This document shows positions 7,531 through 32,222 of a stretch of DNA of 64,000 nt, in pieces. Origin of the DNA: Croceivirga sp. (GTDB lineage: Bacteria; Bacteroidota; Bacteroidia; Flavobacteriales; Flavobacteriaceae); assembly GCA_050042945.1 (NCBI GenBank), contig JBHJJC010000064.1:4344-68343 (forward strand). The letters are read 5' to 3'. The notes below the pieces were generated by a model that worked only from the letters and a program-made list of their open reading frames with translations, did no database searches and was not told the origin of the DNA. The position numbers and the translations under genes were made by a program. Numbering within the stretch: the stretch's first letter is position 1; each line of letters starts with the position of its first letter.

Positions 7531-8052
7531 ATGACGATTTTTGTGGATATGGATGAGGTTATCGCGGATACCTATCAAGCTCATATCGATTATTACAATA
7601 CGAAATACGGCACAACCTTCGATAAGAACGATTGTGCAGGTAATGATTTTTGGAAGATGGTACCGGAAGCCCATCAAAATGAAATATGGCAGAATGCCCA
7701 TAGAACGAATTTTTTCAGGGACTTAAAAGTGATGCCCGATAGTCAGGAAGTATTGGAGGCCATGAGTAAGGTCCATAAGGTATACATTGCAAGTGCCGCA
7801 ATGCAGTTTCCTAATTCCTTACGAGAGAAGTCTGATTGGTTGGATGAGTATTTTCCATTTATACCATGGCAAAGGCGCATACTCTGTGGTCATAAGCATA
7901 TTTTGCGGGGTGATGTCTTAATTGATGACAGAAGCTATCATTTAGAAAGATTCACCGGAAGGGGCATTTTGTTCACCTCACCCCATAATACTGAGGAATT
8001 AAATTTTGAGCGCGTATCCTCATGGAAAGAAGTAGCTTCCTTATTTTTATAA
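7531..8052 (+). CDS. 5'(3')-deoxyribonucleotidase (HAD superfamily, NT5C-like)
   Basis: The HAD motif I is FVDMDEV, followed by IDD...SPHN. The track start at 7525 is a TTG; the ATG at 7531 (MTIFVDMDEV) is more likely. The last 56 nt lie inside the left direct repeat. Confidence 0.8.
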   Translation: MTIFVDMDEVIADTYQAHIDYYNTKYGTTFDKNDCAGNDFWKMVPEAHQNEIWQNAHRTNFFRDLKVMPDSQEVLEAMSKVHKVYIASAAMQFPNSLREKSDWLDEYFPFIPWQRRILCGHKHILRGDVLIDDRSYHLERFTGRGILFTSPHNTEELNFERVSSWKEVASLFL

Positions 8053-8136
8053 TATGTCCAGGCCAATAGTCATTCTGTTTTTTTTGGTTTTAATGCAGTC
8101 TTGTGCATCACAGCATAATTTGGTGGAAGGAAGGCA
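7997..8136 (+). repeat. left copy of 140-bp direct repeat bracketing the NRPS island
   Basis: Hand alignment with 32083..32222 gives 136/140 identical bases with no gaps. Mismatches are at 8057/32143, 8062/32148, 8101/32187 and 8116/32202. The repeat covers the nucleotidase 3' end, the TAA stop, a 1-nt spacer and the first 83 nt of an esterase ORF. Confidence 0.95.
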
Positions 8137-8170
8137 GCACTATTACCCCGAATTAGATAAAAGAACATAG
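8054..8170 (+). pseudogene. dead 5' fragment of the esterase gene (duplicate of the 32140.. start)
   Basis: MSRPIVILFFLVLMQSCASQHNLVEGRQ matches MPRPIVILFFLVLMQSCASQHNLVEGRQ of the intact gene at 32140. It then diverges (HYYPELDKRT) and stops after 38 codons. Confidence 0.85.
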
Positions 8171-9056
8171 GAAATTGATGGTATGGAACACCTCGCTCAA
8201 CAATGACCAATAAGTGCCATAGCATTCAGTAAGCCTTTAATGAGTTGTATATAAGATGAATGCCCCTAACAAGACATCAAGCTCTAAAGGTTGGGCAATC
8301 TATAATAATTTCATCAAATGCCTTTAGAATAGTTTCAAAGATGATTATGTCATGGTGTCTTGCTGATCGCTGTTTGCCATATTGCTGTAGGAGCACCCGA
8401 TTTATTTGGTTTTGCAAAAAGAATGCCCGAATTAGAGAATTAATGGGCCAATGTTGTTTCAAGTTTATGAAAAGAAAAAGAAAAAATTAGCATAATTATA
8501 AAAAGGGAAAATAATTTTTCGATAAAATAGGGCTAGCAATCTCCTTCCAATCGGTTTTTTTTGATTGTGGTTATATTTATTTTAAAGAAAAATATTCTTG
8601 AGAAGTATGATTTACAATAGATTTTCACTCAAACAATCCTATTCTTTTTCACTTAATTTTCTTATTGGGCTCAATTCGGAACATCATTAACTTGTATCGA
8701 TTACAACATAAATCGAATATTTATAAGAGTTAAAACTTTTCTTCTGTGTTGGAAGCATTATTATTGCTACTTATATCGGGGGAATACAAAGTAAGGATTA
8801 GAGCGAAACGTAACTAGTAGGTAATTCCTTAAACAGATAAAACCTTGAGTGTTTTTTGGTTAAGAGACAATAATTATACTTAAATCGCATTTTATATTTT
8901 GTTCTATGTAGATCTTCTCATTTTTTCAGAGGGTCTTGGTTCTTAACCAAGCAGTACTAGACCAGTATTTAATTTTAGTAATTTTTAAGTAGATTATGGA
9001 ATCAAATGTTTGACCGATTCTTTGTAAGTATAGTTTAATAAATTGGAATAAAATTA

Positions 9057-10073
9057 ATGGTGTCGGAAATACAAAAGCGGCAGGAATGGAATGCTATTCT
9101 AGCTAGAATTGACAATTATGACTGCTATCATACTTACGAGTATAGCAGAATAAATAGAAAGCTCAATGAGACTCCCATTTTATTGGTTTATGAGGCCAAT
9201 AAAGTTTTAATAGCTTTGCCATTATTAATTCGTGAAATACCTGAAACTTCCTTTTTTGATTGCACTTCAGTATATGGGTATCCTGGACCAGTTTGTAGTA
9301 ATTATGCAGGGTATGAAGATTTTGAGAACTTTCAAGAAGAATTGAAACATTATTTTCATCAAAAGAAAATAATTAGTGTTTTTTCCAGGTTGAATCCATT
9401 TATTGAAAATCAGGAGCAAGCTATATGTAACTTAGGGACAATTAAAAAGTTAAGCTACGTGGTAAGTATAGATTTGACAAAAAAGACTTCACAGCAACGA
9501 CAACTTTTTTCTAGTACTACAAAGAGGTATCTAAATAGGGCTAGACGCTTATTATATGTAAAAAGGATGGAGACGGTAAGTTCAAATGACCTCGATATTT
9601 TTACTAGGATGTATTTTGAAAATATGAAGAGAGTCAATGCTAGGGAGAGTTATTTTTTCGAAAAACAGTACTTTGCTGAAATGGTAACTTCTCAAGAATT
9701 TGAAACGGAGCTCTATTATGCGATTTTAAAAGAGAATCATGAAATTGTTTCAGCTATGCTTATCATAAAATCCGATATGGGAGTTCATTATCACCTCTCA
9801 GGAACAAATGAGATGCATTTGTATCTTTCTCCGGCACGTTTGTTAATCGATGAAGTAAGGCTTGCGCATTCCAATTCAGGATTGAATTTCTTTAATCTGG
9901 GAGGAGGACTAGGTAGCAAAAAAGATAATCTTTTTTACTTTAAGAGTTCATTCTCTGATGATTACAAGAGATTTAAAATTTGGAAGTACATTGTAAATGA
10001 AAAGGTCTATCATGAACTATCTTCCCAAGTTCAAAATCAGAACGATGGTTATTTTCCTGCATATAGAAATTAA
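9057..10073 (+). CDS. FemAB-like / GNAT-fold (aminoacyl-tRNA-dependent-type) transferase
   Basis: 338 aa. The overall pattern matches the FemX/FemAB-related family: W..I......YHTYEY, TSVYGYPGP, FSRLNP, KRYLNRA, HYHLSGT, FNLGGGLG. The call is by family resemblance from memory, not from a catalytic motif. Confidence 0.55.
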   Translation: MVSEIQKRQEWNAILARIDNYDCYHTYEYSRINRKLNETPILLVYEANKVLIALPLLIREIPETSFFDCTSVYGYPGPVCSNYAGYEDFENFQEELKHYFHQKKIISVFSRLNPFIENQEQAICNLGTIKKLSYVVSIDLTKKTSQQRQLFSSTTKRYLNRARRLLYVKRMETVSSNDLDIFTRMYFENMKRVNARESYFFEKQYFAEMVTSQEFETELYYAILKENHEIVSAMLIIKSDMGVHYHLSGTNEMHLYLSPARLLIDEVRLAHSNSGLNFFNLGGGLGSKKDNLFYFKSSFSDDYKRFKIWKYIVNEKVYHELSSQVQNQNDGYFPAYRN

Positions 10074-10082
10074 ATTTACACA

Positions 10083-10838
10083 TTAAATTTTTTCAATGTG
10101 GTCCTTTAATAGGTATACGGTTTCACTGTTATAGAAAGTACGAAAAGCTTTTACCTTTTTATCGGCAGATAGTGCTGCTTTGTAATTTTGTGGAGCCTTT
10201 ATTGCGTATAATTTATGGTCGGTTGCCCATTTAGCCGTCCATTTAACCTCTTTAATATTCACCGGATTCATAGATTCCATACTTACAGAAAAAGAATTAA
10301 GGGGCAAGGATAATCCTTTTCCGATATGTTTGATTACAGCCTCCTTTCTGGTCCATAAACTAAAGAAACCTTCATATCTTTTTAATCTTGGTAATGACTT
10401 TAAGGCGGCTATCTCATCGCCGTAAAAATGGTTTTTGGCAATTTCAAGGATATCAAAATCCGTAGTTATTTTTTCAATATCTGTGCCTAAAGGATGATTT
10501 GCACAAAACCCTAACAATATTTGGTCACCTGAATGGGAAACATTGAAATGCGGAACAGAGGGTCCTTCCATTAAGGGTTTTCCGAATTCATCATATTTAA
10601 AAACAATATTTTGAGACCTCTGATTAGTATATTTTTCCAATAGTATCCTTAAAGCTCCCCTGGCACAAATAAAACTAATTTTGTCTTTTTCAAATCGATA
10701 TTTAGCGGCTCTGTCCCTTTCTTTCTGGCAAAGAATATTGGCAAATAAATCAATATCCTTATTTAAGAAATTATATGAAAAGGCCCATAGGTGAATTTCA
10801 CTGCTGTTAAGCTGAAAAAACTGGGGTTTAAAACTCAT
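10083..10838 (-). CDS. Sfp-type 4'-phosphopantetheinyl transferase
   Basis: FNVSHSGD, GTDIEKI and FSLWTRKEAVIKHIGKGL are present. The track start at 10892 overlaps the GT stop; the internal ATG at 10838 (MSFKPQFF) is plausible. Confidence 0.85.
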   Translation of the reverse strand: MSFKPQFFQLNSSEIHLWAFSYNFLNKDIDLFANILCQKERDRAAKYRFEKDKISFICARGALRILLEKYTNQRSQNIVFKYDEFGKPLMEGPSVPHFNVSHSGDQILLGFCANHPLGTDIEKITTDFDILEIAKNHFYGDEIAALKSLPRLKRYEGFFSLWTRKEAVIKHIGKGLSLPLNSFSVSMESMNPVNIKEVKWTAKWATDHKLYAIKAPQNYKAALSADKKVKAFRTFYNSETVYLLKDHIEKI

Positions 10839-10884
10839 ATTAATCCCTATAGGATTTTTTATTTTAGGATAAATTAACTTTATT

Positions 10885-12225
10885 TTAAGCAAGTAGGGGG
10901 GTCAATTTTCTTTGCCCATACTCTCGGTATTTCCTGTGAAAGAAATTCATTTTTTCTTTAAATGAAGGCTCTTCAAATATACGTTTGATATTTTTACGGA
11001 TTTGTAACGCATCGTCTTTATCCTTATCCCCTCTTATTCCCAGTCCATGATAATGGATTCTAGCGGCACAACCATTTTGGTCGAATTTTTTACCTGAATA
11101 TGCCAACATTGGTACGGAAAAATGGATACATTCATTGACACTGTTGTTGCCTGCATGTGTGATGCAACAATCCGTATGTTCCAACACCTTCATTTGTGGC
11201 ACCCAATAGATTATATGGACATTACTTGATTCTGTTTCCAACCGATTTGGAGGTAGTTTCCCTCCCAAACTAATAATGAGCATCCATTCATCCTTTTCTT
11301 CCACAGCGGAGATTACTTTTTTTAAAAAAGAAAGGTCAGGGTCTAAAAGGCTACTGGCAGCGCAATAAATGAGCTTTTTCCTACTATGTTCTTTAAGCCT
11401 TAAAATGTTATCTAGTAAATTGTTCTCCGTGATATTTAACATCATCTTTCTTTTTTCATGTACCATAGGACCAGCATAGTAAAAGTTTCGTTCGGGCTGA
11501 TGTGGAAAATCCATTTCAGCCATTGTGAATGAGATAAACGGAAGGTTAGTGTATGAAAAGAATATGGGTAAATTAGTAGCGATAAGCGTATCCGTAGGAA
11601 AACCGTTTTCTTTCGCATAGCGCAGTAAAGCAGCTCTTCTATAGCCTTTGAAAGTCAGATTGTTCAAAAATATTCGGAACTGTACTTTTATTTTGATATA
11701 AATCCAGTTAAACAAAATTCCCAGCGCACTTCCTTTTATTCCTTTGTTTGGAATAATGTCGGAACGTAGCGGTGGAAGTTTTGTGCCGTTTCCCATTTTA
11801 TTGGAAAACCATGTGCTCAAAATGGTTGTTGGTATTTTTAATGCGTAACAAACAAATATCAAGTCGTGTAATTCTTTATCGATCAGGACTTTATCGATAT
11901 GTAAATCAGATATGATTTTTTCGTAAACATCCAAGCCCAGCAATTTATTACCATCCTTTATGATTCTTTCCTTATTTTCTAGATGAAAAAGGAATTTCTT
12001 AATCCAGGAAAGGTTTTGTAAGCGACCGAGATTTTCTGTGGAAAGAGAGAGCTTTATCGGTGGTAGCTGAACATATGCCAAATCGTAACGTTCAATTTGT
12101 TCTTTTAAATCCAATACCGATAGACAGGTAATTTTATGTCCTTCGGATTTTAAACGATAAGCGACCTCTAAACTACTGTTCAAATTCCCTGTGAAACCGG
12201 TAAAAATTAGTCCTATGTGCGGCAT
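10885..12225 (-). CDS. GT1-family (MGT/UDP-glycosyltransferase-like) glycosyltransferase
   Basis: The C-terminal nucleotide-sugar signature is WVPQMKVLEHTDCCITHAGNNSVNECIHFSVPMLAYSGKKFDQNGCA. The N-terminus has a G-rich loop (GLIFTGFTGNLN). Confidence 0.8.
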   Translation of the reverse strand: MPHIGLIFTGFTGNLNSSLEVAYRLKSEGHKITCLSVLDLKEQIERYDLAYVQLPPIKLSLSTENLGRLQNLSWIKKFLFHLENKERIIKDGNKLLGLDVYEKIISDLHIDKVLIDKELHDLIFVCYALKIPTTILSTWFSNKMGNGTKLPPLRSDIIPNKGIKGSALGILFNWIYIKIKVQFRIFLNNLTFKGYRRAALLRYAKENGFPTDTLIATNLPIFFSYTNLPFISFTMAEMDFPHQPERNFYYAGPMVHEKRKMMLNITENNLLDNILRLKEHSRKKLIYCAASSLLDPDLSFLKKVISAVEEKDEWMLIISLGGKLPPNRLETESSNVHIIYWVPQMKVLEHTDCCITHAGNNSVNECIHFSVPMLAYSGKKFDQNGCAARIHYHGLGIRGDKDKDDALQIRKNIKRIFEEPSFKEKMNFFHRKYREYGQRKLTPLLA

Positions 12226-12363: not shown

Positions 12364-14751
12364 TCATTTGTCAGCGATGTTTGCCTCAATTTTTTGAGCC
12401 ATTTCCAAAACATTTCCTTCATTGAAAATGGTATCGTGTCTCCCATTTAAATAAGAGAGGTGAACTTCTTTTTCTGAAATTGCCTGCCATCCCATACGGT
12501 ATTGATCGTTTATAAATTGGGTTTCTTTTTTTGTGAGCAATAAATACGTGTCCGCTATGTTTTTCTTGTTCCATGGATAAGTATTGTAGATGCGGATTAA
12601 ATTATTTTGAACTTTAGCCAAGCGTTTTTCATTTTCATTACCGATAATCATGGTTACGGTAGATTCGACAAAACGCGATAACTTGTTTCTAACAGCAAGT
12701 TTGATGGCTAATACCGGGTTTTGAGCAATTCTTTTAAAGAATCCTTGAATACGGGATTTTAATCGTGCTGTATCATTGAAATTTTCTTGATCGATGATGC
12801 TATCAACTATGAACAGCTTACATTCATGACCCTTCTGTTTGAGATAATGTGCTATTTCTATGCCTACCCCGGTACTAAAGCAATAGGTGATGATATGAAA
12901 TGGTCCGTTTGATTGAACTTTTAAGATTTCGTCCGCATAAGCAAATGCCATTTCTTCTATACTTGTATGCAATTCATTTTCTGAATCTATACCGGCAGGT
13001 TGTAGTGCATAAACAGGTCTATTTTTGTTCATAACACTAGCGAGTGGTTCAAAGAAAAATACATGTCCGCCACCTCCATGAATACAAAAAACAGGAGACT
13101 TGGTCCCACTACCTCTTAAAGGAATCAAATAGTTCCATTTCTTGTCGATATTTTCGTTGCTAATTGCAACGCCAAGCGAAGCGATAGTAGGATTTTCAAA
13201 AAGAACTTGCGGTGGTATTTTAATTCCCAATTTCTGGTCAAAAGCGGAAAATAGCTTTAGGGCATGGAGCGATTTCCCTCCAATGTCAAAGAAATTGTCA
13301 TATATGCTAATGGGTCTTATTTCAAATAGACTTTCCCAGATTTTAAGAAGTTCAAGTTCTGTATTGTTTCTGGCAGACCCAAAATTTTCGTTCCCTTTTT
13401 TTATCGTTGTTTTGTCTTTTTTGATGGAAAAATCCAATCGCTCTATTTGTGAAAGGTTTTCTTCAATGGTTTGGTGACTTTGATTGATAAAAATTTGTAA
13501 TAATTTTTTGAAGTTGCGCAAAAGCCAATCGGCAATTTCGGTCGATATAACTGCGGTATCTGAAATGAGTTGTACGGCAAACCCATCAATGGTCCTAATT
13601 ACCATGGTCACAGGATATGTGGAAGTGACCCCACTTCCAAAGTCTTTTACCAAGACTCCGGCACTTTCAATTTCATTCCAAGGGAAGTTTTCAAAAATGA
13701 ACAGATTATCAAATAAAGGGAGCTTGTTGGACCAGTTAATGAACTGTTCTATTTCGCCCGTGGTAATATGCTCAAATCTTCTGGATTTTATTTGCTGATC
13801 TTGGAGGTTTTTAAAGAAAGATGTAATATCAGTATCAATAGTCCATGAAGTGGTTACCGGAATGACGTTCATGAACATACCGGTCATGTGTTCTATGTTG
13901 ACCAATCCGCTAGACCTACCTGAAACGGTATTCCCAAAGACCATCTGGTTTTTATTGAAGTACTTTCCTAACAGTAAAGACCATATACCCTGTAAAATTG
14001 TATTTTGGGTAACTTTATAGGCCTTGGTCAGGGAAATTAACCCCTCTAAAAGAGCATCTGGGAATATTTCTTCCTGTATTTTATAATTAGAAGAAGTCTT
14101 TCTTGAATCACTATTGAAAATTGAAGGTGACCCAACCGATGCAAATACATTTTTCCAATGATGTTCAACGTCTCGGTGTTCAGTTTGATCGGCTAGTTGG
14201 TCTTGATATGCTTTCTGGGTTGGAATGGATTCTAGTGCAGTTTTTTTCCCTAGTTTGAAGTTTTCGTAAAAGGTGAAGACATCTTTGTAAATGATACTGG
14301 TGGACCATCCATCCAATAATAAATGATGACAGTTCCAGATAAGGAAATACTTGTTTTCCTTGGTTTTTATTAAATGTAAATTCCGTAACGGCCCTTTTTC
14401 AAAATCGATAGCTTGTCTCTTAGGGTTTGATTTGAAATGTTTTAATCTTACTTTGAACTCGTCTGGGTTCTCATTTGACCAATCAATAATTTCCCAATTG
14501 GCACTGATATGTTCATGTACTATTTGGACAGGATTTTTCACTTTTTCCCAATGTACCGTGGTTCTCAATACCTCATGCCTTTTGATAGCCGCATGCCAAG
14601 ATTTTTTGAGAACTTCAATGTCCAGTGGTCCTTCTAACAGGCATTGTACATGCAAAAAGCCTTGATCTGTTTTGTTCATCAAACGATGTAACAGCAGACT
14701 TTTCTGCATTTCCCCCAAAGGGTGTATTGTGACTACTTTTTTCCTTTCCAC
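12364..14751 (-). CDS. NRPS termination module lacking an adenylation domain: C-T-TE
   Basis: GTG start. The C core HHLLLDGWS is at 14302-14328. The carrier motif is FFDIGGKSLHAL, with Ser494 at 13270-13272. The TE region reads FCIHGGGGHVFFF, ITYCFSTGVG, NGRHD. At 795 aa there is no room for an A domain. Confidence 0.9.
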   Translation of the reverse strand: MERKKVVTIHPLGEMQKSLLLHRLMNKTDQGFLHVQCLLEGPLDIEVLKKSWHAAIKRHEVLRTTVHWEKVKNPVQIVHEHISANWEIIDWSNENPDEFKVRLKHFKSNPKRQAIDFEKGPLRNLHLIKTKENKYFLIWNCHHLLLDGWSTSIIYKDVFTFYENFKLGKKTALESIPTQKAYQDQLADQTEHRDVEHHWKNVFASVGSPSIFNSDSRKTSSNYKIQEEIFPDALLEGLISLTKAYKVTQNTILQGIWSLLLGKYFNKNQMVFGNTVSGRSSGLVNIEHMTGMFMNVIPVTTSWTIDTDITSFFKNLQDQQIKSRRFEHITTGEIEQFINWSNKLPLFDNLFIFENFPWNEIESAGVLVKDFGSGVTSTYPVTMVIRTIDGFAVQLISDTAVISTEIADWLLRNFKKLLQIFINQSHQTIEENLSQIERLDFSIKKDKTTIKKGNENFGSARNNTELELLKIWESLFEIRPISIYDNFFDIGGKSLHALKLFSAFDQKLGIKIPPQVLFENPTIASLGVAISNENIDKKWNYLIPLRGSGTKSPVFCIHGGGGHVFFFEPLASVMNKNRPVYALQPAGIDSENELHTSIEEMAFAYADEILKVQSNGPFHIITYCFSTGVGIEIAHYLKQKGHECKLFIVDSIIDQENFNDTARLKSRIQGFFKRIAQNPVLAIKLAVRNKLSRFVESTVTMIIGNENEKRLAKVQNNLIRIYNTYPWNKKNIADTYLLLTKKETQFINDQYRMGWQAISEKEVHLSYLNGRHDTIFNEGNVLEMAQKIEANIADK

Positions 14752-22614: not shown

Positions 22615-22627
22615 ACCAAGTGTTGCT

Positions 22628-24428: not shown

Positions 24429-24489
24429 AATTTCTTTGTTAACTATCAAAAAACAACTTCAATTTTTTAGCCAAATATTTCTTCTATCA

Positions 24490-25566
24490 ATGAGGTTTAT
24501 AAAATTAGACGGTTTGCGCGGTATTTTTAGTTTAATGATAGTATTATATCATTACCTCCAGGAGTTTTTACCTATATATTTTTATCGTTTTTTTATTATC
24601 CGAGAATCATATGCATTTGTGGATTTCTTTTTTGTTTTGAGTGGTTTTGTAATTTCACATAATTACAATCAGATAGGGTCAAGGGAACAGTTTTTTACAT
24701 ATGTTAAAAAAAGATTCATTAGGCTGTACCCTTTGCTTTTTTATACTGTAATGATTTATTTTTTGTTTAGATTACTGGCATTAAACCTATTTCCTGATGT
24801 AATAGATTCGAGTGTGTCCTTTGATGCAATGCTAATCAAAACTTTGGACGCTCTACTTTTCACTAACTCAACGGTTATTTTAGGGGGAGAAAACGGTGGT
24901 ATGAATTCTCCTTCTTGGTCAATATCTGCCGAAATGATTACCTATATTCTATTTGGTTTGGTTGTTGGACTAACAGGAGAAAAAAAAATAGTTAAGTCAG
25001 TAATTTTTGGTTTGGTAATAGGTTTTGCCAGTATTATTTTGATTTATGAAGGTAGTTTATTTAAAATGTCAGACTATGGATATTTAAGAAGCTTTATCTC
25101 TTTTTTAATGGGTTACTTTGTATGGAAATTAAATCCTAAAAAAATAAAAATCAAGAAGAATCTTGAGCTTTTGTTCCCTTTAATTATTATACTCATGCTT
25201 TATTTTTTGCATAACTATAAGAATACAGATTTAAAATTCTATTTTGAATTTTTGGTTCCCCCTGTATTTGCTATGTTTATCTATTTTTTATTGGTGTCCA
25301 AAGGGTTGTTGACCTCTATGTTGGAAAGTAAACCAATTCAATACTTAGGAAAGATATCGTATTCTATTTATTTGAATCATTTTCTCATATTGATGATTCT
25401 ACCCAAAGCGTCTTTTATATTGTTAAAATTGGAAAATAGTAATGCAAACCAACTTTTAATACTAATTTTCACAATGATTCTGATAATAATATATTCTCAT
25501 GTAACGCATCAAATTATTGAGCTGAGAGGAGGCCGGTTTTTAAAAAGAATATTATTGAAATCATAA
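24490..25566 (+). CDS. acyltransferase family 3 (integral-membrane O-acyltransferase)
   Basis: MRFIKLDGLRGIFSLMIVLYH is followed by about 10 hydrophobic helices, and SWSISAEM is present. I prefer the ATG at 24490 over the TTG at 24436. Confidence 0.8.
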   Translation: MRFIKLDGLRGIFSLMIVLYHYLQEFLPIYFYRFFIIRESYAFVDFFFVLSGFVISHNYNQIGSREQFFTYVKKRFIRLYPLLFYTVMIYFLFRLLALNLFPDVIDSSVSFDAMLIKTLDALLFTNSTVILGGENGGMNSPSWSISAEMITYILFGLVVGLTGEKKIVKSVIFGLVIGFASIILIYEGSLFKMSDYGYLRSFISFLMGYFVWKLNPKKIKIKKNLELLFPLIIILMLYFLHNYKNTDLKFYFEFLVPPVFAMFIYFLLVSKGLLTSMLESKPIQYLGKISYSIYLNHFLILMILPKASFILLKLENSNANQLLILIFTMILIIIYSHVTHQIIELRGGRFLKRILLKS

Positions 25567-25586
25567 AGAGGAGGAACGATTCTATA

Positions 25587-28500
25587 CTAACCTTCTTCCA
25601 TCAAACGAATTAATATACTTTCCACATATTTCCCATATGTCTTGGCTGTAGGATACTTAAAAATATCTGCAAGTGTTAAAACATTTAATTCAAAAGATTC
25701 CTTTAACCTTGATGTAATAACCATGGCATTCAGGGAGTTACCTCCAATTTGAATGAAGTCATCGTCAATGCTTATTTGAGCTACTTTAAGGACCTCTTTC
25801 CAAACTTCTACAATGATTTCCTCAAATTCGTTGCTGGGTCCCATATAGGTTCTTTTATCTTCTAGGGCCTGGAGAGTAATATTTGGAAGCTTTTTTCTAT
25901 TGATTTTTCCACTTGAAAGAAATTCAAAAGTATCTAAATGAACATAATAGGAGGGCACCATATATTTGGGTAAATATATTTCAAGAGCAATTCTTAAATC
26001 ACGTTCCTCAATTGTGTTTCCACTATAATAGGAAGCTAAATATTCTTGTTCGTTTTGATGAATGACCTTAACCACTGCTTGATTAACGCCCGGATAGCTT
26101 TCTAACGACTTTTCAATTTCGCCAAGCTCTATGCGTAACCCTCTTAATTTGATTTGGGTATCAGTCCTTCCCATGTATTCAATAGCACCATCCATTCGAT
26201 ATCTAGCCAAATCACCAGTTTTGTACAATTTCGAATCAGAATTATTAGAAAATGAATCTTCTAAAAAACGCTTTCTGGTCAACTGATCTTTGTTCAGATA
26301 CCCATGGGCCACTTGAACTCCGGCAATATAAAGTTCACCCACAACTCCAATAGGAACAGGATTTAGGTCGTGGTCCAGAATATATATTTTGGTATTAGCA
26401 ACGGGATGACCAATGGGTACGCCATTTAAATAATCCCCTTTTTTACAATGCCAGCTCGTTACATCAACTGATGCTTCTGTGGGGCCGTAAAGATTGTACA
26501 ATTCAGCATAAAGTTTCTCATGGGTATTTTTAACTGTGCTCATTGCCAAGGCTTCTCCACTACAGAATATTCTTTTCAAACTTGCACCTCGGTATTCTAC
26601 ATCCCTTGTACTAATAAATATATTTAGCATAGATGGCACGAAATGTATAATGTTAACATTATGGGTAGCTATAGCACTAAGAAGGCTATCTTGATCCAAG
26701 TGTTCACCAGGTTGCGCAATGACCAATTTGGCCCCGACTTGCAAAGGCCAAAAAAGCTCCCATACCGAAACATCAAAAGTAAACGGTGTTTTCTGCAGAA
26801 AAACGGTTTTTTCAGTAACTGGATAATCGTTGTTCATCCAATTCAATCGGTTACAGATTCCCTTGTGATGGCATATAACCCCTTTTGGTTCCCCAGTGCT
26901 TCCTGAGGTGTAAATAACATATGCCATATCATCCGGCTGAACATTTACTCTAGGTTGTGTTTCAGGGAAGGTTTCTAAAGTATCCGTCAGAGAACGAATG
27001 TTATAGGAGCTTGTAATTCCCGTATCCATATTATTCCAATCTGTATTGTGATGGAAAAAGACTTTGGCTTGGGAATTTTTTAAGATGTATTCTGCCCTTT
27101 TCTTAGGTGTTGCAGTGTCCAAGGGCAAATAGGCCGCTCCTGCTTTCAAGATACCGTATAAAAAAAACATCATCTCAAAAGATCTGTCCAAGCAGAGCGC
27201 AACAATGTGGTTTTGCCCAACACCTTGCTGTTTTAGAAAATGGGCTACCTGATTTGTTTTCTTGCTAAATGAAAGATAACTCATGGACATCTCACCAAAA
27301 ACAAGGGCTGTATTTTTAGGATTCTCAAGAACCTGCGCTTCAAATTTATCAAGCAAGGTTTCACCAGATTCATAAACTACGGTTGTATTGTTCCAAGTTG
27401 CTATTTTTTTAATTTCTTGAGGCGTTATTATCGATACATCTTGTATTTTTTGATTTTTATTGGCTACGAATGCATCCAGTATTGCCATAAAATGTTGGCC
27501 AATGGAATCATACTGCTCTTTAGAAAAAATGGCATTGTTCAGATCAAATTGAAGTTGGTAATCTCCTTCGTTATTGAAATCATGTACTTGAAGTCGAATA
27601 TGGTGGTTGGAATCAATATGATCGGCCAACAACCAATTACATTTGGTGGGGATTCCTGCAAAATCATGGTAGATCGCAGGAATAAAATTGAAGAGCACAT
27701 TATACGTTTTCATCAATTCTATTGGCGCTCGGGAAATCATGGCATTCTTTAGAACGTCCAAGGACTCCCGTTGTATTTTTTTAAAGATGTCTATAAAACT
27801 ATCTTCGGTATTTATAGCTATATTCAAGGGCAGCAACTCCATAAAAAGCCCGATTGTCTTTTTATCTTTTGGACTACTTCTATTATGATTAGCCATCCCA
27901 ATGGAAAACTTCTCTAGATTACCAATCTTATAAATCAACGTGCAGATGACCGTTAAAAAAATGTTGGATAGCGCTAATTCCATCGTGAGTCCTTTGATAT
28001 CCTTTTCGTAAGAAAATGCTTTTAATTTTTCAGTTCTATCCTTTCCTAATTTAAAATTAACCCTTGTCGAGTCTGTTTTTACTTGATTCCGCTTTACCCC
28101 ATATAGCTGGGGTTTTTCAAGCGTATTTCTAAGTTTTGCTTTCCAATATGGAGAATTCTCCAATTCATGTTGGAATGGATTCTTATTGGCATATGCTTCA
28201 AATGTCAAAAATTCATTTTCATCGGTAGTCACCTCGCCAATGGCATTTATATAATATCTCTCCAGTTGATCATAAAGCAGCTTTACGCTCCAACCGTCTG
28301 TAATCAAATGATGCTGATTCAAATAGAAAACGAATTGATTTTCGCCTAATTTGAAGAGGACTGCACGATATAAAAGGGTACTTAAATCAAAAGGTATTTT
28401 TTTATCCCCATTTAACCATTCTCTACAAGCGAGTTTTGGTTTTTTTTTATCTACAAAATCCAAGAACTGTAATGGACTTTCTACTTTTTCCTTAAATACT

Positions 28501-28715
28501 TGAATGGGTATATCCTCCTCAATTGCTATATACAGTCTTAGCGAATCGTTAGAATCAACAAGCCTTTGAAAAGCCAATTTAAAACAGCCAACATCAATTT
28601 TCCCCTTAATTTCAAAAGTGAGGGGCATATTGTACATCGGGTTATTGGAATCTATTTCCTGCCCCATCCAAATCATCATTTGGCTGTGGGTCATTGGAGC
28701 TGTCTTCATGGTCAT
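25587..28715 (-). CDS. NRPS module C-A-T (A-domain code reads as serine)
   Basis: The C core QHHLITDGWS is at 28287-28313. The A cores are MAYVIYTSGSTGEPKG, NLYGPTE, YKTGD, GRTDTQIKLRGLRIE, SSGKINRK. The T motif is FIQIGGNSLNAM, with Ser995 at 25734-25736. My hand-extracted specificity residues are D-V-W-H-F-S-L-V-D-K. The track start at 28718 is a TTG; there is an ATG at 28715. Confidence 0.92.
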   Translation of the reverse strand: MTMKTAPMTHSQMMIWMGQEIDSNNPMYNMPLTFEIKGKIDVGCFKLAFQRLVDSNDSLRLYIAIEEDIPIQVFKEKVESPLQFLDFVDKKKPKLACREWLNGDKKIPFDLSTLLYRAVLFKLGENQFVFYLNQHHLITDGWSVKLLYDQLERYYINAIGEVTTDENEFLTFEAYANKNPFQHELENSPYWKAKLRNTLEKPQLYGVKRNQVKTDSTRVNFKLGKDRTEKLKAFSYEKDIKGLTMELALSNIFLTVICTLIYKIGNLEKFSIGMANHNRSSPKDKKTIGLFMELLPLNIAINTEDSFIDIFKKIQRESLDVLKNAMISRAPIELMKTYNVLFNFIPAIYHDFAGIPTKCNWLLADHIDSNHHIRLQVHDFNNEGDYQLQFDLNNAIFSKEQYDSIGQHFMAILDAFVANKNQKIQDVSIITPQEIKKIATWNNTTVVYESGETLLDKFEAQVLENPKNTALVFGEMSMSYLSFSKKTNQVAHFLKQQGVGQNHIVALCLDRSFEMMFFLYGILKAGAAYLPLDTATPKKRAEYILKNSQAKVFFHHNTDWNNMDTGITSSYNIRSLTDTLETFPETQPRVNVQPDDMAYVIYTSGSTGEPKGVICHHKGICNRLNWMNNDYPVTEKTVFLQKTPFTFDVSVWELFWPLQVGAKLVIAQPGEHLDQDSLLSAIATHNVNIIHFVPSMLNIFISTRDVEYRGASLKRIFCSGEALAMSTVKNTHEKLYAELYNLYGPTEASVDVTSWHCKKGDYLNGVPIGHPVANTKIYILDHDLNPVPIGVVGELYIAGVQVAHGYLNKDQLTRKRFLEDSFSNNSDSKLYKTGDLARYRMDGAIEYMGRTDTQIKLRGLRIELGEIEKSLESYPGVNQAVVKVIHQNEQEYLASYYSGNTIEERDLRIALEIYLPKYMVPSYYVHLDTFEFLSSGKINRKKLPNITLQALEDKRTYMGPSNEFEEIIVEVWKEVLKVAQISIDDDFIQIGGNSLNAMVITSRLKESFELNVLTLADIFKYPTAKTYGKYVESILIRLMEEG

Positions 28716-29007
28716 CAAAAAAATTAATACTATCGTAACACCCGAAGACCTTATGCCTTTGCAATGTGTTCTTCTGTGTTTTTAAATGTAGCGCTAATTT
28801 CCATAATCTTTACTGATAAGAACCAACGCCAATTAAAATTTCATTAAAACAATGGCTTCTAACTATAGAATGTCCCTCTCAACCCCCATATTTCCCACTT
28901 AACAGGTTTTTTTTGGGTTGGCACCTTAAAAACTTTTGATTTAACCTTTGTTTATGTAATAAACCATAAGCAATATAGGATTGTTGGGTTCCATGCATTA
29001 GAGTTAA

Positions 29008-29481
29008 GTGAAACGTAAAAAGAATAATAAAAATAAGTCTTTTATCCTTGTCTTTATGACTGTGGGAGTGAGCACCCTTTATGTTCTTGCCCCCCTACAC
29101 GAAGAAATTCGGGAGGTTGGCCATAACATCGCACATTATATTGAAGCACCCATTTCTTTTTTGGAGCACACTACCTATAGGAGTACGGAATTTCACACAG
29201 CACACGAACATATAGAAGCTGATCATGGGCATGAACACCTTTTCATTGACTTTTTAGGCGCCTTTTTGGAAAAGTCTTCATCGGAAAAAAGTCCAATGAA
29301 AAATTCTTCTTTAAAGTTGAAAGTAGATAAACACATTATTTCTGAACAAAAGTTTAAAAGGTATGTTGACGTTACTTGTGCTCCTGCCGTAACGATATGG
29401 AAATATATAATAGAGGTGTTACTAGGCTATCGCACCATAATTTATGTGCCTCCCCAAAACATTGATACCTGTAATGTGTAA
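29008..29481 (+). CDS. small membrane-anchored histidine-rich protein
   Basis: GTG start, then a Lys-rich N-terminus and one hydrophobic helix. There are 10 His in residues 31-77 (...HNIAHYIEAPISFLEHTTYRSTEFHTAHEHIEADHGHEH). An alternative ATG lies at 29056. I recognised no family. Confidence 0.5.
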   Translation: MKRKKNNKNKSFILVFMTVGVSTLYVLAPLHEEIREVGHNIAHYIEAPISFLEHTTYRSTEFHTAHEHIEADHGHEHLFIDFLGAFLEKSSSEKSPMKNSSLKLKVDKHIISEQKFKRYVDVTCAPAVTIWKYIIEVLLGYRTIIYVPPQNIDTCNV

Positions 29482-29628
29482 TGCTTAATCCAAATAGGAT
29501 TAGGTACGAAAAGTTGGGCAAGTTCATGCCCAACCATAATTCCATAAACAATACAAAAGCAGCACTTCTTATTGGAAGGGCATCACTTTTATTTGCTTGA
29601 CCAGAAGGTTGCCATTAAATAACAAATA

Positions 29629-31866
29629 ATGAAAAATTATATTTATATTCTCTACTTATTTTTTGTAATTGGAACAATACATGCGCACGATTTAAAAGGA
29701 ACTATTGTGGATGAATCAGGAGTTCCTGTTGAAGGAGTATCCATTGTTAACCAAACCACTAGGGGTTACACCTTCTCAAACGTCTCTGGTTATTTTGAAC
29801 TCGACGACATTTCTATTGGGGATGAAGTCGTTATAAATAGTCTAGGCTTTAGAACCCAACGGTTAACAATCGTTGAAAGTCAATTGGACGCGACCATCAA
29901 AATTATTTTGTTGGGGGAAGCAGTATCGTTAAATCAAGTTACGCTCCTTTCCAAAACAAATCCATTGACAGAATTAGCTAATGTCGATGTTCAAATAAAT
30001 CCGGTAAAATCTTCACAAGAGATTATGCGCAAAGTACCAGGACTTATTATTGGTCAACATGCCGGTGGTGGAAAAGCAGAACAGATTTTTTTAAGGGGTT
30101 TTGATATTGACCATGGTACCGATATTGCGATCAATGTAGACGGATTACCAGTAAATTTACCTTCACACGCACATGGTCAAGGTTATTCTGACCTACATTT
30201 TCTAATACCGGAAATCATTGATAACATCGATTTTGGAAAAGGGCTATATTACGCCGATAAAGGAAATTTTAATACAGCTGGTTATCTTGATTTGAACATT
30301 AAGGATAAGATTGACAACAGTTCCATTGTTGTTGAAGCAGGTCAGTTCAACACGTTGAGGGCAGTTGGTCTTTTAAAAGTGTCTGAAGGGGAATACAGCA
30401 ATGCCTATATTGCCTCTGAAGCTGTTCTGACCGATGGGGTCTTTGATGCTTCACAAAATTTTAACCGGTTGAACATTCTTGGCCGTTATAACTACAATAA
30501 CTATGAAGATGAGCAACTGACCCTTTCTATTTCACATTTTCAAAGTCGTTGGGATGCTTCGGGGCAAATTCCTCAGCGAGCGGTGGACCAAGGTTTGATT
30601 TCGCGATTTGGTGCTATTGATAGCACAGAAGGGGGTAATACAAGCCGTTCTAACATCTGGTTAAAACATATGAAACAGCTGGACGAACATCAACGTATTC
30701 GTACGAACGCTTATTTATCAAAATACGATTTTGAATTGTTTTCAAACTTTACCTTTTTCCTGAACAACCCGGTTGACGGAGATCAAATACAACAGGTAGA
30801 GAGTCGGACCATTATAGGTGCCGAAACCGCTTATGATGTGAATTTCCACACCGATAACCATAATGAGCAATTAAGTTTGACCTCTGGATTGGGCTTTCGA
30901 TATGACGATGTTGACAACAATCAACTATCCCGAACCAGAAACCGAACAGAAATTTTAGAACGGTTGGCCTTTGGTGATGTAGACGAACTGAACGGTTACG
31001 CCTACTCTAGTTTGACCTACAAAACCAAGAATTGGACATTTATTCCTGGTGTTCGTTTAGACTATTTTAGCTTTGGATATAATGATTTCCTTCAACCGAC
31101 CTTCTCTAGTTTACGGGAAAATGATGTTATTGTAAGTCCAAAATTCAATGCCATTTATAGCCCAGGTGAGAACTTCCAAATATATGGCAAAGCCGGATTT
31201 GGTTTCCACTCTAATGATAGCAGGGTTGTCAACGCCCAGAATGCTACCGAAGAAACGTTACCTTCTGCCTTTGGTGCTGATATCGGTACGGTGTTCAAAC
31301 CTTTATCAAACTTAATTATCAATGCTGCTCTATGGGGGCTGAGTCTAGAGCAGGAATTTGTATATGTTGGTGATGAGGCTGTGGTGGAACCCAGTGGAAG
31401 GTCAAGGAGATATGGTGTTGATTTCGGTCTGAGATATCAATTGACCGATTGGTTGTTTGCAAATGCCGATGTTAATTACACCTTAGCCAGAAGTATTGAC
31501 GAAGCCGATGGGGAAGATTTTATCCCATTAGCTCCTGATTTTACATCTGCCGGTGGTCTTACAGTGCGTAACTTGGGTAAATTTTTAGGGAGTCTAAATT
31601 ACCGCTATGTAGATGACAGGCCCGCAAATGAGAATAATTCAATTGTTGCAATTGGCTATTTTGTTACGGATATGAACATTAACTACAACTTCAATAAAAA
31701 TTGGTCGTTTGGTCTTATTGTTGAAAACCTGTTTGATACCGAATGGAATGAAACCCAATTTGCTACAGAGACAAGACTCTTTAATGAAGTGAATCCAATA
31801 GAAGAAATAACATTTACTCCAGGGACGCCCTTTTTCCTTAGGGGGCGTTTAACGGTAAGCTTTTAA
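29629..31866 (+). CDS. TonB-dependent outer-membrane receptor with CarboxypepD_reg-like N-domain
   Basis: Signal peptide, then GTIVDESGVPVEGVSIVN...SNVSGYFEL (Bacteroidota-type N-domain). The plug region reads IFLRGFD, followed by a long beta-barrel that ends in a terminal Phe (RLTVSF). Confidence 0.88.
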   Translation: MKNYIYILYLFFVIGTIHAHDLKGTIVDESGVPVEGVSIVNQTTRGYTFSNVSGYFELDDISIGDEVVINSLGFRTQRLTIVESQLDATIKIILLGEAVSLNQVTLLSKTNPLTELANVDVQINPVKSSQEIMRKVPGLIIGQHAGGGKAEQIFLRGFDIDHGTDIAINVDGLPVNLPSHAHGQGYSDLHFLIPEIIDNIDFGKGLYYADKGNFNTAGYLDLNIKDKIDNSSIVVEAGQFNTLRAVGLLKVSEGEYSNAYIASEAVLTDGVFDASQNFNRLNILGRYNYNNYEDEQLTLSISHFQSRWDASGQIPQRAVDQGLISRFGAIDSTEGGNTSRSNIWLKHMKQLDEHQRIRTNAYLSKYDFELFSNFTFFLNNPVDGDQIQQVESRTIIGAETAYDVNFHTDNHNEQLSLTSGLGFRYDDVDNNQLSRTRNRTEILERLAFGDVDELNGYAYSSLTYKTKNWTFIPGVRLDYFSFGYNDFLQPTFSSLRENDVIVSPKFNAIYSPGENFQIYGKAGFGFHSNDSRVVNAQNATEETLPSAFGADIGTVFKPLSNLIINAALWGLSLEQEFVYVGDEAVVEPSGRSRRYGVDFGLRYQLTDWLFANADVNYTLARSIDEADGEDFIPLAPDFTSAGGLTVRNLGKFLGSLNYRYVDDRPANENNSIVAIGYFVTDMNINYNFNKNWSFGLIVENLFDTEWNETQFATETRLFNEVNPIEEITFTPGTPFFLRGRLTVSF

Positions 31867-31923
31867 ATGAATTAGTGCATTACATTCTACCTAAGAAAAG
31901 ATAGGTGGTATTTTAGATTACTG

Positions 31924-31961
31924 GTAAACCCTATAACCCTAAACTGGATTATAGGGTTTAC
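31924..31961 (+). terminator. rho-independent terminator candidate after the receptor gene
   Basis: A perfect 13-bp stem, gtaaaccctataa / ttatagggtttac, encloses a 12-nt loop and is followed by tttgtt. Confidence 0.6.
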
Positions 31962-32082
31962 TTTGTTAATTATAAACCAATTTCAAAAGTTGTTTCTTAT
32001 TGAAAAGAATGGTAAGATTTTCCAATTTGGAAAGAATATTCGAGTGGTGTGGAAGTTATTCTATTTGAAAAAGAATTTTTTC

Positions 32083-32222
32083 AATTAAATTTTGAGCGCG
32101 TATCCTCATGGAAAGAAGTAGCTTCCTTATTTTTATAATATGCCCAGACCAATAGTCATTCTGTTTTTTTTGGTTTTAATGCAGTCGTGTGCATCACAGC
32201 ACAATTTGGTGGAAGGAAGGCA
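32083..32222 (+). repeat. right copy of 140-bp direct repeat bracketing the NRPS island
   Basis: See 7997..8136. This copy contains a start-less stub ending ...QLNFERVSSWKEVASLFL* (identical to the nucleotidase C-terminus) plus the genuine 5' end of the esterase gene. Confidence 0.95.

Follow-up and report, generated by a model that had tools for sequence, protein, structure and literature searches.

The yersiniabactin HPI at asn-tRNA is an integrase-mediated island, a class in which att repeats are typically ~15–30 bp long and lie at tRNAs or the ends of conserved genes. Direct repeats that contain and restore a gene's 3' end are a hallmark of such islands. The microcin H47 genomic island was reportedly studied by Azpiroz, Bascuas and Lavina in 2011. 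It illustrates that recombinase-less islands with long direct repeats are already known: this 13-kb island of E. coli has extensive imperfect direct repeats and no site-specific recombinase, relies on host functions for mobility, and its excision and integration, shown experimentally, are RecA-independent (Azpiroz and Lavina 2017, PMC5426353). Circular plasmids with shortened homology, introduced into E. coli, integrate by a single crossover that leaves direct duplications of 109–950 bp around the insert (PMC3240628).

The locus described here shares features with each of these systems. It lies in a 64-kb stretch of flavobacterial DNA (the window, to which all positions refer), in which a 23.9-kb block (8137–32082, the island) is found between two copies of a 140-nt direct repeat. 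Like the microcin H47 island, it is a chromosomal island for an antibacterial or secondary metabolite, with long imperfect flanking repeats and no recombinase (PMC5426353). The H47 island, however, encodes a ribosomal microcin in Enterobacteriaceae, whereas here a 24-kb NRPS cluster is carried by a flavobacterium, and the repeats are demonstrably a duplicated gene–gene junction. Mobility is experimental there, while its counterpart here is a low-coverage candidate empty site (contig L088, 1.18x). As in Campbell-type suicide-plasmid integration, a direct duplication brackets the insert, so that each interrupted unit is present once in full and once truncated (PMC3240628), but the laboratory integrants have designed homology and a plasmid backbone, and this island has no backbone. 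Siderophore-type NRPS cargo with a receptor, and repeats that rebuild the 3' end of the target, recall integrase islands, ICEs and CIMEs such as the yersiniabactin HPI. Those elements carry an integrase at one end, whereas this island has neither an integrase nor a tRNA, its 140-nt repeat also spans the 5' end of the next gene, and its composition is non-deviant. The island is a clean yet fairly ordinary case of a genomic island without an integration enzyme of its own. Its features and those of its flanks are as follows.

7531–8052, + strand: NT5C, the 5'(3')-deoxyribonucleotidase gene, intact; 173 aa with the ATG at 7531 (PF06941, 184 bits)
7997–8136, + strand: left copy of the 140-nt direct repeat (alignment, repeat finder, outgroup comparison)
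8054–8170, + strand: dead 38-codon esterase stub (ORF list, outgroup comparison)
8137–9056, no strand: left island end, non-coding and AT-rich over 920 nt
9057–10073, + strand: FemX/FemAB-like GNAT acyltransferase (PF13480; NF047883 weak)
10083–10892, − strand: Sfp-type 4'-phosphopantetheinyl transferase (PF01648, PF22624)
10885–12225, − strand: macrolide-glycosyltransferase-family (MGT) glycosyltransferase (PF06722, PF00201; TIGR01426 97 bits, below cutoff)
12364–14751, − strand: NRPS termination protein C-T-TE, without its own adenylation domain (Pfam Condensation, PP-binding, Thioesterase)
14857–19752, − strand: NRPS C-A-T-T-(C/E), with a tandem pair of carrier domains, plus a second domain of the condensation family bearing the TIGR01720 signature
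19795–21087, − strand: HupE/UreJ_2 membrane protein, metal-transporter-like (PF13795, 151 bits)
21457–22614, + strand: PigA/RedW-like L-prolyl-PCP dehydrogenase (NF053553 389 bits, NF045652 369 bits, both below equivalog cutoffs)
22592–24202, + strand: stand-alone adenylation enzyme, started at 22628 by gene callers (TIGR01733 352 bits; PF00501)
24192–24428, + strand: stand-alone peptidyl carrier protein, 78 aa (PF00550; a called gene in L082)
24436–25566, + strand: membrane acyltransferase, Acyl_transf_3 (PF01757)
25587–28718, − strand: NRPS module C-A-T
29008–29481, + strand: hypothetical protein conserved beside the receptor (47% identical in L087)
29629–31866, + strand: TonB-dependent receptor, last gene of the island (PF00593, PF07715, PF13715; TIGR01783 weak)
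31924–31961, + strand: hairpin with a 16-nt stem followed by T-rich sequence (inverted repeat I2, 94% complementary)
31987–32079, + strand: three imperfect direct repeats of 24–27 nt, palindromic in their cores; the last stops 3 nt short of the right copy
32083–32222, + strand: right copy of the 140-nt direct repeat (alignment, repeat finder, outgroup comparison)
32083–32138, + strand: start-less stub of the NT5C tail (18 codons, then TAA), with the same sequence as the functional tail
32140–32853, + strand: intact esterase/lipoprotein gene, 237 aa (Pfam alpha/beta-hydrolase families)

The two repeat copies are identical at 136 of 140 positions. An earlier sequence-only reading had claimed this ungapped direct repeat, and both alignment and a repeat finder recovered it. 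The span given by these programs was slightly longer (7997–8139 versus 32083–32225, 138 of 143 nt identical, with mismatches at 8057, 8062, 8101, 8116 and 8137); 140 nt is the better boundary because 8137 lies outside the duplication in the empty site of an outgroup congener (L086) and in all left copies. The repeat is the sole long-range direct repeat in the window, has sharp edges and holds a 60-nt stretch of perfect identity. Searches with blastn and tblastn detected no homology beyond its edges, at the DNA or protein level, and no offset or extra partial copies inside either end of the island. The faint resemblance reported by the sequence-only reading upstream of the right stub, GVEVILFEKEFFQL versus GRGILFTSPHNTEEL, was not significant in these searches and is noise.

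The content of the copies was as that reading had described it: each comprises the last 56 nt of NT5C including its TAA, then one spacer base, then 83 nt from the start of the esterase gene (in the left copy, TAA is 8050–8052 and the spacer base 8053). The left copy completes the nucleotidase and leaves the dead esterase stub, in agreement with the ORF list; this stub keeps the signal-peptide/lipobox part and then continues into island DNA. The right copy begins the intact 237-aa esterase at 32140, after the start-less nucleotidase stub. NT5C thus retains its own 3' end, and the esterase gene its own start together with 56 nt of native upstream sequence. An upstream TTG is present for NT5C at 7525, the 173-aa form being the one recorded in the protein collection, and non-conspecific homologues of the esterase reach up to 79% identity.

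A 49-nt core of the repeat occurs exactly twice in the window, compared with no occurrence in 100 shuffles, and across 104 fetched loci it was confined to these junctions. The possibility that the 140-mer is a dispersed, REP/MITE-like element, which had been raised as a check on the insertion reading, was rejected on these grounds. An assembly artefact was also rejected: both junctions recur in an independent 61.9-kb ENA contig with 99.9% identity, and the copies differ from each other. All four differences within the 140 nt fall in the esterase part and none in the NT5C-tail part. Comparison with the outgroup (L086) identified the left-stub variants (T8057, G8062, T8101 and T8116) as the derived state; the differences at 8057, 8062 and 8116 are common to the window and L084, which diverge most among the island carriers. 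The repeat is species-specific, the outgroup differing from it at ~20 of 140 positions.

NT5C and the esterase gene adjoin in 36 of 80 species-level loci from several genera, with gaps of −16 to +24 nt, and none of the 36 relatives that have the junction carries an insert there. The congener L086 (81% nucleotide identity) has the same TAA–1 nt–ATG junction as an empty site. Adjacency in relatives, which had been proposed as a check, was therefore found, and it supports the earlier claim of an insertion between two once-adjacent genes. Within the species, a metagenome contig (L088) matches the predicted empty site at 881 of 885 positions, but its coverage is 1.18x and it may have been assembled chimerically across the repeat. 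Each of the three long contigs from the same species has the island, bounded by the same junctions. Homologous clusters in other flavobacteria (L087 and L092) lie in unrelated genomic contexts, and the block is therefore transferable as a unit. In Maribacter sp. R77961 (L042), a 61-nt duplication of the NT5C tail brackets a 2.2-kb insert with a TPR gene; six Maribacter species show the empty site of this insert, and the left edge of the repeat falls within ~4 nt of the homologous NT5C position. At another locus (L027), a 1.4-kb insert lies between copies of a 67-nt repeat.

All genes of the island belong to the biosynthetic cluster. We infer its product and function as follows: the cargo appears to be a pyrrole-2-carboxyl/NRPS cluster plus a TonB-dependent receptor, of antibiotic or metal-chelator type. 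The hallmark of a pyrrole-2-carboxyl starter is present, namely an adjacent stand-alone A domain, PCP and PigA/RedW-type dehydrogenase, although the dehydrogenase scores below the equivalog cutoffs (389 bits versus a cutoff of 500 bits). In described starter pathways (PigI/PigG/PigA, RedM/RedO/RedW and PltF/PltL/PltE), the A enzyme, carrier protein and flavin dehydrogenase lie side by side, as they do here. The downstream assembly line (C-A-T, C-A-T-T-C/E and C-T-TE), together with the glycosyltransferase, FemX-like GNAT, HupE-like protein and TonB receptor, matched no characterised pathway that we could identify. The tandem T domains of the C-A-T-T-(C/E) protein correspond to DNA repeat D1 (16292–16460 and 16517–16685). 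In L092 the FemX/FemAB-like GNAT is syntenic with the genes for PPTase and NRPS, which makes it a member of the cluster family.

Pfam searches detected no integrase or transposase domain in the island genes or in any sizeable ORF of the window, and Pfam marks revealed no recombinase domain in called genes within 10 kb on either side on conspecific contigs. Neither a tRNA gene nor an Rfam match was found within the 64 kb; the earlier statement that no integrase, transposase or tRNA was visible therefore held. No terminal inverted repeats were found between the island ends. A transposon or IS was rejected: there are no terminal inverted repeats and no transposase, and the duplication is 140 nt long as against the short 2–15 bp. 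The left end (8137–9056) contained no gene remnant in a six-frame Pfam search, matched no plasmid or phage, and had no homologous counterpart in the related clusters L087 or L092. At the right end, the hairpin is likely the terminator of the receptor gene, as judged from its stem and T-rich tract; the motif of the three direct repeats beside the right copy is not enriched elsewhere in the window (6 matches versus 3 expected). The comparison of island with flanks, another check suggested at the outset, revealed no distinction: GC content was 37.0% versus 36.4–40.1% in the flanks, tetranucleotide correlations were 0.957–0.971 between island and flanks versus 0.96–0.976 between flanks, and the composition of the island does not deviate.

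These data support a single event in which the 23.9-kb block inserted between NT5C and the esterase gene, duplicating the 140-nt junction. Each copy holds an uninterrupted tail–TAA–N–ATG–head junction, the layout of the relatives, so contiguity of the two genes predates the island. Because the island occupies precisely the novel joint, with no extra partial copies, duplication and insertion were one event; and because it encodes no recombinase, the joining would have been the work of host recombination functions. As for the route, a single crossover of Campbell type ranks highest, ahead of an illegitimate insertion (staggered or inter-sister) and, in third place, an integrase that was lost or acted in trans.

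The Campbell-type route, the simplest one, which we favour tentatively and give somewhat less than an even chance, would use host recombination and a circular donor. A non-replicating circle carrying the cluster and one copy of the 140-nt junction segment would undergo a single crossover with the chromosomal NT5C–esterase junction, leaving each intact gene beside a dead stub of the other. Vertical inheritance and homologous recombination among conspecifics would follow, and recombination between the copies could later delete the island or release it as a circle with one repeat copy. A circular intermediate, a role for host RecA and an ability to excise would thus all be part of this route. The insert lies exactly between the copies, and the duplicated segment is a contiguous stretch of the uninterrupted target; this exact-joint topology is what a single crossover produces. 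Judged by established minimal pairing lengths, homologous recombination can work with 140 nt that include a 60-nt perfect stretch, and the E. coli plasmid integrations (PMC3240628) are an experimental precedent with duplications in this size range. The pattern of differences between the copies fits a donor allele on one side of the crossover at least as well as later decay. Against a crossover, the source of a circle already carrying the species' own junction is unexplained; since the repeat is species-specific, the donor would have to have been a conspecific with the island already beside the junction, which shifts the first event back. The island also has no plasmid or replicon backbone, and its non-coding ends no plasmid or phage similarity; no circular or tandem form of it was observed.

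A possible though unlikely alternative to the crossover is duplicative insertion in situ, with both 140-nt copies derived from the same chromosome. Incoming DNA without homology would have been joined illegitimately by its ends at 8136 and 7997, either on two sister chromatids at a replication fork (unequal inter-chromatid integration) or by a template switch out of the chromosome and back into it, with re-entry 140 nt upstream of the point of exit (MMBIR/FoSTeS-like). Such an insertion would explain a near-identical, species-specific repeat without a pre-existing circle, and would place the island exactly at the joint. The derived changes in the dead left stub by outgroup comparison are those predicted by decay, and neutral decay after an in-situ duplication explains them equally well, in a sample of 4 differences in 140 nt; the distribution is, however, slightly uneven (0 changes in 56 nt of the right stub versus 4 in 83 nt of the left, Fisher-type p ~0.06). 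Relatives contain recombinase-free inserts with duplications of varied length, 61 nt in Maribacter (L042) and 67 nt in L027. Inter-chromatid integration yields duplications in S. pneumoniae transformation and offers a precedent, although homologous repeats are used there (PMC3784515). Illegitimate joining of a 24-kb fragment at both its ends is nevertheless expected to be extremely rare. We know of no experimental precedent for it in Flavobacteriaceae, and no donor sequence was found in which to look for microhomology at the joints.

Site-specific integration, with the repeats as attL and attR and an integrase later deleted or supplied in trans (CIME/IME-like, cis-mobilisable), is doubtful. 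The repeats include and rebuild the 3' end of a gene, as in integrase-mediated islands, and the locus has flanking direct repeats with NT5C and the esterase gene both intact; an element-encoded recombinase, a tRNA or hotspot site and deviant composition are missing. The 920-nt non-coding left end could be the relic of a deleted recombination module, the 24–27-nt repeats by the right copy could be protein-binding sites, and in Maribacter L042 a left repeat edge within ~4 nt of the homologous NT5C position hints at some site preference. However, no recombinase was found in the island, its six-frame-translated ends, the 64 kb or the 10-kb surroundings on conspecific contigs, every island gene is part of the biosynthetic cluster, and the junction is uninterrupted in all 36 relatives that have it. 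Nor would a transferable element be expected to carry a 140-nt repeat of fast-evolving, species-specific coding sequence (signal peptide, third-codon positions).

A two-step origin, in which a neutral 140-nt tandem duplication came first and the cluster landed inside it later, is very improbable: small tandem duplications are frequent in bacteria, and one here would have kept both genes intact and made a neutral landing pad, but a random later insertion should leave an offset partial copy, and none exists at the island ends. The reading without any insertion (an ancestral cluster lost in relatives, or a dispersed or artefactual repeat) could draw on the matching composition of island and flanks and on the presence of the island in all long conspecific contigs, but is effectively refuted, and has next to no chance of being right, given adjacency of the genes in 36 species of several genera, the outgroup comparison, copies that are each a fossil of the uninterrupted junction and so place contiguity first, a core restricted to the two junctions, agreement between independent assemblies and differences between the copies.

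More broadly, and we regard this as an improbable reading, the repeat would be the footprint of a general, recombinase-free and junction-duplicating mode of gene gain in Flavobacteriaceae, in which host repair or recombination creates target duplications of 60–140 nt. Candidate processes may include template switching, inter-chromatid joining and the kind of RecA-independent recombination between repeats known from the H47 island, and the reading may link the 140-nt case with the 61-nt case of Maribacter sp. R77961 and possibly the 67-nt case of Flagellimonas sp. 389. If true, new genes could land between tightly packed or overlapping genes with neither being damaged. The locus itself is an unusually clean natural case in which a pathway and its uptake receptor were gained without a mobility gene, while two genes separated by a single base both stayed undamaged. 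Owing to the flanking repeat, the insertion event is datable and the island potentially reversible, by deletion or circle formation through repeat recombination. The limits of the transferred unit are known with single-nucleotide precision, an advantage for cloning the cluster or expressing it heterologously. Prediction tools keyed to integrases, tRNAs and composition, all three of which this island fails, would miss such a route; if the footprint is common in Flavobacteriaceae, it would represent an under-appreciated, host-mediated route of gene gain.

Ungapped alignment and a repeat finder agreed on a direct repeat of 7997-8139 with 32083-32225 (138/143 identical), the only long-range direct repeat pair in the 64-kb window; its 49-nucleotide core occurs exactly twice in the window and not once in 100 shuffles. 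The copies mismatch at 8057, 8062, 8101, 8116 and 8137. The base at 8137 is G in all left copies, and A in the right copy and in two empty sites (NT5C–esterase junctions without the island); this position hence belongs to the island, and the duplication proper is 7997-8136, 140 nucleotides long and 136/140 identical. Each copy comprises 56 nucleotides of the deoxyribonucleotidase gene NT5C including its TAA, one spacer base and the first 83 nucleotides of the esterase gene. The left copy completes NT5C and starts a dead esterase stub of 38 codons (8054-8170), while the right copy is a start-less NT5C tail followed by the opening of the intact esterase gene (237 amino acids). Alignment, repeat finder and the states of 8137 thus agree with the repeat (7997-8136 and 32083-32222) and the gene content described in the sequence-only reading. 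That reading had also seen a faint resemblance to NT5C upstream of the right stub, but blastn and tblastn comparisons of the two regions with each other, and of the two proteins with the whole window, detected no homology past the repeat edges, and the resemblance is therefore noise.

The junction was then sought in relatives. A scan with NT5C, one genome per species, gave 80 loci (best match 72% identity), including Croceivirga, Flagellimonas/Muricauda, Croceitalea, Maribacter and others. The esterase gene directly follows NT5C in 36 of these species-level loci, at an estimated distance of -16 to +24 nucleotides, and is itself usually followed by an M15 dipeptidase gene and then by the next gene of the window. 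A more closely related congener (L086; GCA_964400025.1, contig CAYNUM010000426.1; ~81% nucleotide identity) has the order NT5C, one base, esterase, S51, M15, with the same TAA-N-ATG junction as the window. Adjacency of the two genes in relatives, on which the proposed insertion hinged, was thus observed. The repeat copies are fossils of the uninterrupted junction, so that contiguity of the two genes is older than the island. Taken together, these data support insertion of the island between two once-adjacent genes.

Other gene gains mark this neighbourhood. The S51 (cyanophycinase-like) peptidase gene (32853-33722) lies between the esterase and M15 genes, and stop and start codons overlap at each of its two borders. 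Both the window and the congener L086 contain it, and tblastn detected it in 0/80 species-level loci, including the 36 with the esterase–M15 pair; it represents a second gain at this locus, an older one that lacks a flanking duplication. Another variable slot lies between the M15 gene and a THUMP-like gene, where 34560-36149 encodes a protein that has a choice-of-anchor I domain and whose N-terminus is collagen-like; among relatives it was seen only in the Croceivirga MAG L010 (84% amino acid identity). In Croceivirga thetidis DJ-13 (L020:5273-9859), NRPS and PPTase genes are located immediately upstream of NT5C. This NRPS is a different one, 27-28% identical to that of the window, and biosynthetic clusters have therefore landed beside NT5C at least twice.

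Between the copies (8137-32082), a non-coding left end is followed by 13 genes, all of one biosynthetic cluster:

8137-32082, first part: non-coding left end, 920 nucleotides
Cluster genes 1-3: FemX-like GNAT; Sfp-type PPTase; MGT-family glycosyltransferase
Cluster genes 4-6: NRPS C-T-TE; NRPS C-A-T-T-(C/E); HupE/UreJ_2 membrane protein
Cluster genes 7-9: PigA/RedW-like prolyl-carrier-protein dehydrogenase; stand-alone adenylation enzyme; 78-amino-acid carrier protein
Cluster genes 10-13: Acyl_transf_3 acyltransferase; NRPS C-A-T; small hypothetical protein; TonB-dependent receptor
31924-31961: hairpin (likely terminator), 3' of the receptor gene
31987-32079: three imperfect direct repeats of 24-27 nucleotides, each with a palindromic core (e.g. 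TTTCCAATTTGGAAAG)

The trio of dehydrogenase, adenylation enzyme and carrier protein is the signature of a pyrrole-2-carboxyl starter unit, and the receptor together with the HupE-like protein suggests that the product may be a metallophore. Within the large NRPS gene, a 169-nucleotide tandem repeat (16292-16685; 75% identity, spacing 225 nucleotides) represents two consecutive carrier (T) domains, at amino acids ~1022-1078 and ~1097-1153, after which comes a condensation-family domain with the TIGR01720 signature. The neighbouring C-T-TE protein is without an adenylation domain of its own.

The three short repeats occupy the final 95 nucleotides of the island, ending 3 nucleotides short of the right copy. 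A regulator or a protein involved in recombination could bind to them; the 24-nucleotide motif showed no enrichment in the cluster or elsewhere in the window. The Bacteroidetes -7 promoter box (TAnnTTTG) was not found between the receptor and esterase genes. A six-frame Pfam search of the non-coding left end found no integrase or gene remnants, and plasmid and phage collections held nothing similar to it. Both non-coding ends of the island are unique, homology between related clusters and the window being confined to coding regions.

Pfam searches revealed no integrase, transposase or other recombinase domain in the island genes or the larger ORFs of the window, and Pfam marks showed no recombinase among the called genes of conspecific contigs; searches of the window for tRNA, tmRNA and Rfam families were likewise negative. 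The earlier remark that no integrase, transposase or tRNA is to be seen therefore holds. The island is flanked by housekeeping genes, e.g. TamB, PFK, GAPDH, LptD and TsaD, and is compositionally indistinct from these flanks in GC content (37.0%, compared with 36.4% in the left flank and 39.8-40.1% in the right) and in tetranucleotides, island–flank correlations (0.957-0.971) overlapping those between flanks (0.96-0.976). By the defining test of each class, the island is neither an integrase-mediated island nor a transposon. At 8 kb downstream of the island there is a TfoX_N-domain gene (40722-41054). Competence is regulated by the TfoX family in some Proteobacteria; the gene matters here solely because taking up free DNA is one way in which the island could conceivably have entered.

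Homologous clusters were found on two flavobacterial contigs, in contexts unrelated to the window. In L087 the cluster core genes are 88-94% identical at the protein level, other NRPS modules occur, and giant Kelch/PKD proteins follow; in L092 the GNAT, PPTase and HupE proteins are 57%, 48% and 60% identical, and hydrolase and collagen-like genes precede. PLSDB contained no close plasmid-borne homologue, the nearest plasmid-borne HupE homologues being ≤36% identical. Occurrence in unrelated contexts argues that the block is a transferable unit within the Flavobacteriaceae, which also accounts for the unremarkable composition of the island.

The differences between the copies bear on their history. 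When L086 serves as outgroup, the right copy proves to be ancestral at 8057, 8062 and 8101, the changes having occurred in the dead left stub. Changes at 8057, 8062 and 8116 are common to the window and L084, a 2.2-kb conspecific contig from another study. Neighbouring island DNA marks the window and L084 as the most diverged of the island carriers, and the changes are therefore old. The NT5C-tail part of the repeat (60 nucleotides) shows no difference between copies. Although 4/5 differences are synonymous, the idea of two functional alleles was dropped, since comparison with the outgroup assigns the derived states to the dead stub and so few differences carry too little weight. On a 99%-identical contig (L085:1291-1433, corresponding to 7997-8139), the left copy carries right-copy bases at 8057, 8062, 8101 and 8116, contradicting the tree from adjacent island DNA. 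These states could reflect gene conversion between the copies, but collapse of the copies by the assembler is at least as likely at the 2.4x coverage of this contig.

Exact-protein searches with the 237-amino-acid esterase and the TTG-start NT5C gave no matches, and conspecific assemblies were reached instead through members of 90% protein clusters. One of these, P0128 (55 amino acids, JGI), proved spurious and pointed to unrelated contigs (L089-L091). All three long conspecific contigs with the esterase gene carry the island; a 61.9-kb ENA contig (L081, L082) is 99.9% identical and contains both island junctions. Occupied left junctions were also present in L085 and L084. The latter is mostly 96-100% identical to the window, but identity falls to 77-88% in two stretches of the GDPD gene (6542-6700 and 7100-7199). 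Such a mosaic is what homologous recombination with a diverged allele typically produces. A recombination breakpoint between GDPD and NT5C, considered earlier, was withdrawn when a finer profile resolved two diverged patches within GDPD. The Logan contig L083 stops 30 nucleotides into the right repeat, where a k=31 graph is expected to break. The empty site predicted from the sequence was matched by one contig (L088; ERZ1740049 NODE_7624, 885 nucleotides), which joins 7508-7996 to 32083-32478 through a single repeat copy and is identical at 881/885 positions without gaps. Its k-mer coverage is 1.18, however, and at this depth an assembler may cross a 140-nucleotide repeat, competing edges never having been sampled. 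The predicted structure thus has a close match, which we lean only slightly towards regarding as a genuine empty site. An empty-site pattern scan of JGI metagenomes, a collection apparently without this species, gave no matches, and a TonB receptor scan of metagenomes returned only relatives at ≤30% identity.

We also asked whether any of the 80 loci contains its own NT5C junction twice. In Maribacter sp. R77961 (NZ_CP138991.1; L042:10462-12820), the last 61-62 nucleotides of NT5C recur in direct orientation 2.2 kb downstream with 92% identity, enclosing a single gene for a 685-amino-acid TPR protein and no recombinase. The empty site is seen in six other Maribacter species, where NT5C converges with the next gene and the two overlap at their tails; here too, therefore, an insertion entered a junction with zero space and was made harmless by duplication. 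The left edge of this repeat falls within about 4 nucleotides of the position homologous to the edge in the window, a match that may be coincidental. When all 1.65 Mb of fetched sequence were scanned for such repeats, only two more emerged, L027 and L038. In Flagellimonas sp. 389 (L027:16911-18476), a 67-nucleotide direct repeat (94% identity) surrounds a 1.4-kb insert with a gene for a 368-amino-acid lipoprotein-like protein between TfoX_N and TsaD. In the window (41054/41056), as in several relatives, these two genes abut; the 67-nucleotide repeat did not originate from a coding junction. The footprint of an insert bracketed by a duplication is rare but recurrent.

No offset partial copy of the repeat was found inside either end of the island, which places the island exactly at the novel joint of the duplication. 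Duplication and insertion were therefore one event, and duplication first with later insertion is ruled out by the same position. We consider it highly probable that the structure arose by a one-step duplicative insertion without a recombinase in cis. This narrows the mechanism to a single host-mediated duplicative event, with the exact route lying between three candidates. The simplest, which we tentatively place first while giving it somewhat less than an even chance, would be a Campbell-type single crossover, in which the chromosomal junction recombined with a circle bearing the cluster and one 140-nucleotide copy. It has direct experimental precedent: E. coli plasmids with shortened homology integrated as circles, leaving duplications of 109-950 bp (PMC3240628). 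However, the island has no replicon backbone, and the incoming circle would already need this species' own junction sequence, so that the crossover explains spread or re-integration better than the very first event. Insertion in situ, with two joints made illegitimately on sister chromatids or with a template switch away from the chromosome and back to it, would account for the species-specific near-identity without a special donor and fits the finding that the stub variants are derived. Duplications arising from inter-chromatid integration have been documented, though with homologous repeats (PMC3784515). For 24 kb, an event of this kind should be very rare, and no donor sequence whose joints might show microhomology was found; we regard this route as possible but rather unlikely. 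A site-specific recombinase, since deleted or supplied in trans, with the repeats as att sites, is improbable, as no such enzyme was found in the window or among the called genes of conspecific contigs, the segment of identity is long and made of fast-evolving coding sequence, and 0/36 relatives have any insert at the NT5C–esterase junction.

Among described systems, the microcin H47 genomic island of E. coli comes nearest: a biosynthetic island of 13 kb that lacks a recombinase and is flanked by extensive, imperfect direct repeats. Its excision and integration are carried out by host functions that do not depend on RecA and are still unidentified (PMC5426353). Biosynthetic cargo, imperfect flanking direct repeats and the lack of a recombinase are common to both. 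The present island, in contrast, is found in another phylum, carries an NRPS cluster with a receptor, and has repeats that are demonstrably a duplicated gene–gene junction; movement is established for the microcin island and putative for the present one. To a specialist the island will not be surprising. Its value lies in a nucleotide-precise, integrase-free acquisition of a biosynthetic gene cluster, a case that standard island finders would miss.
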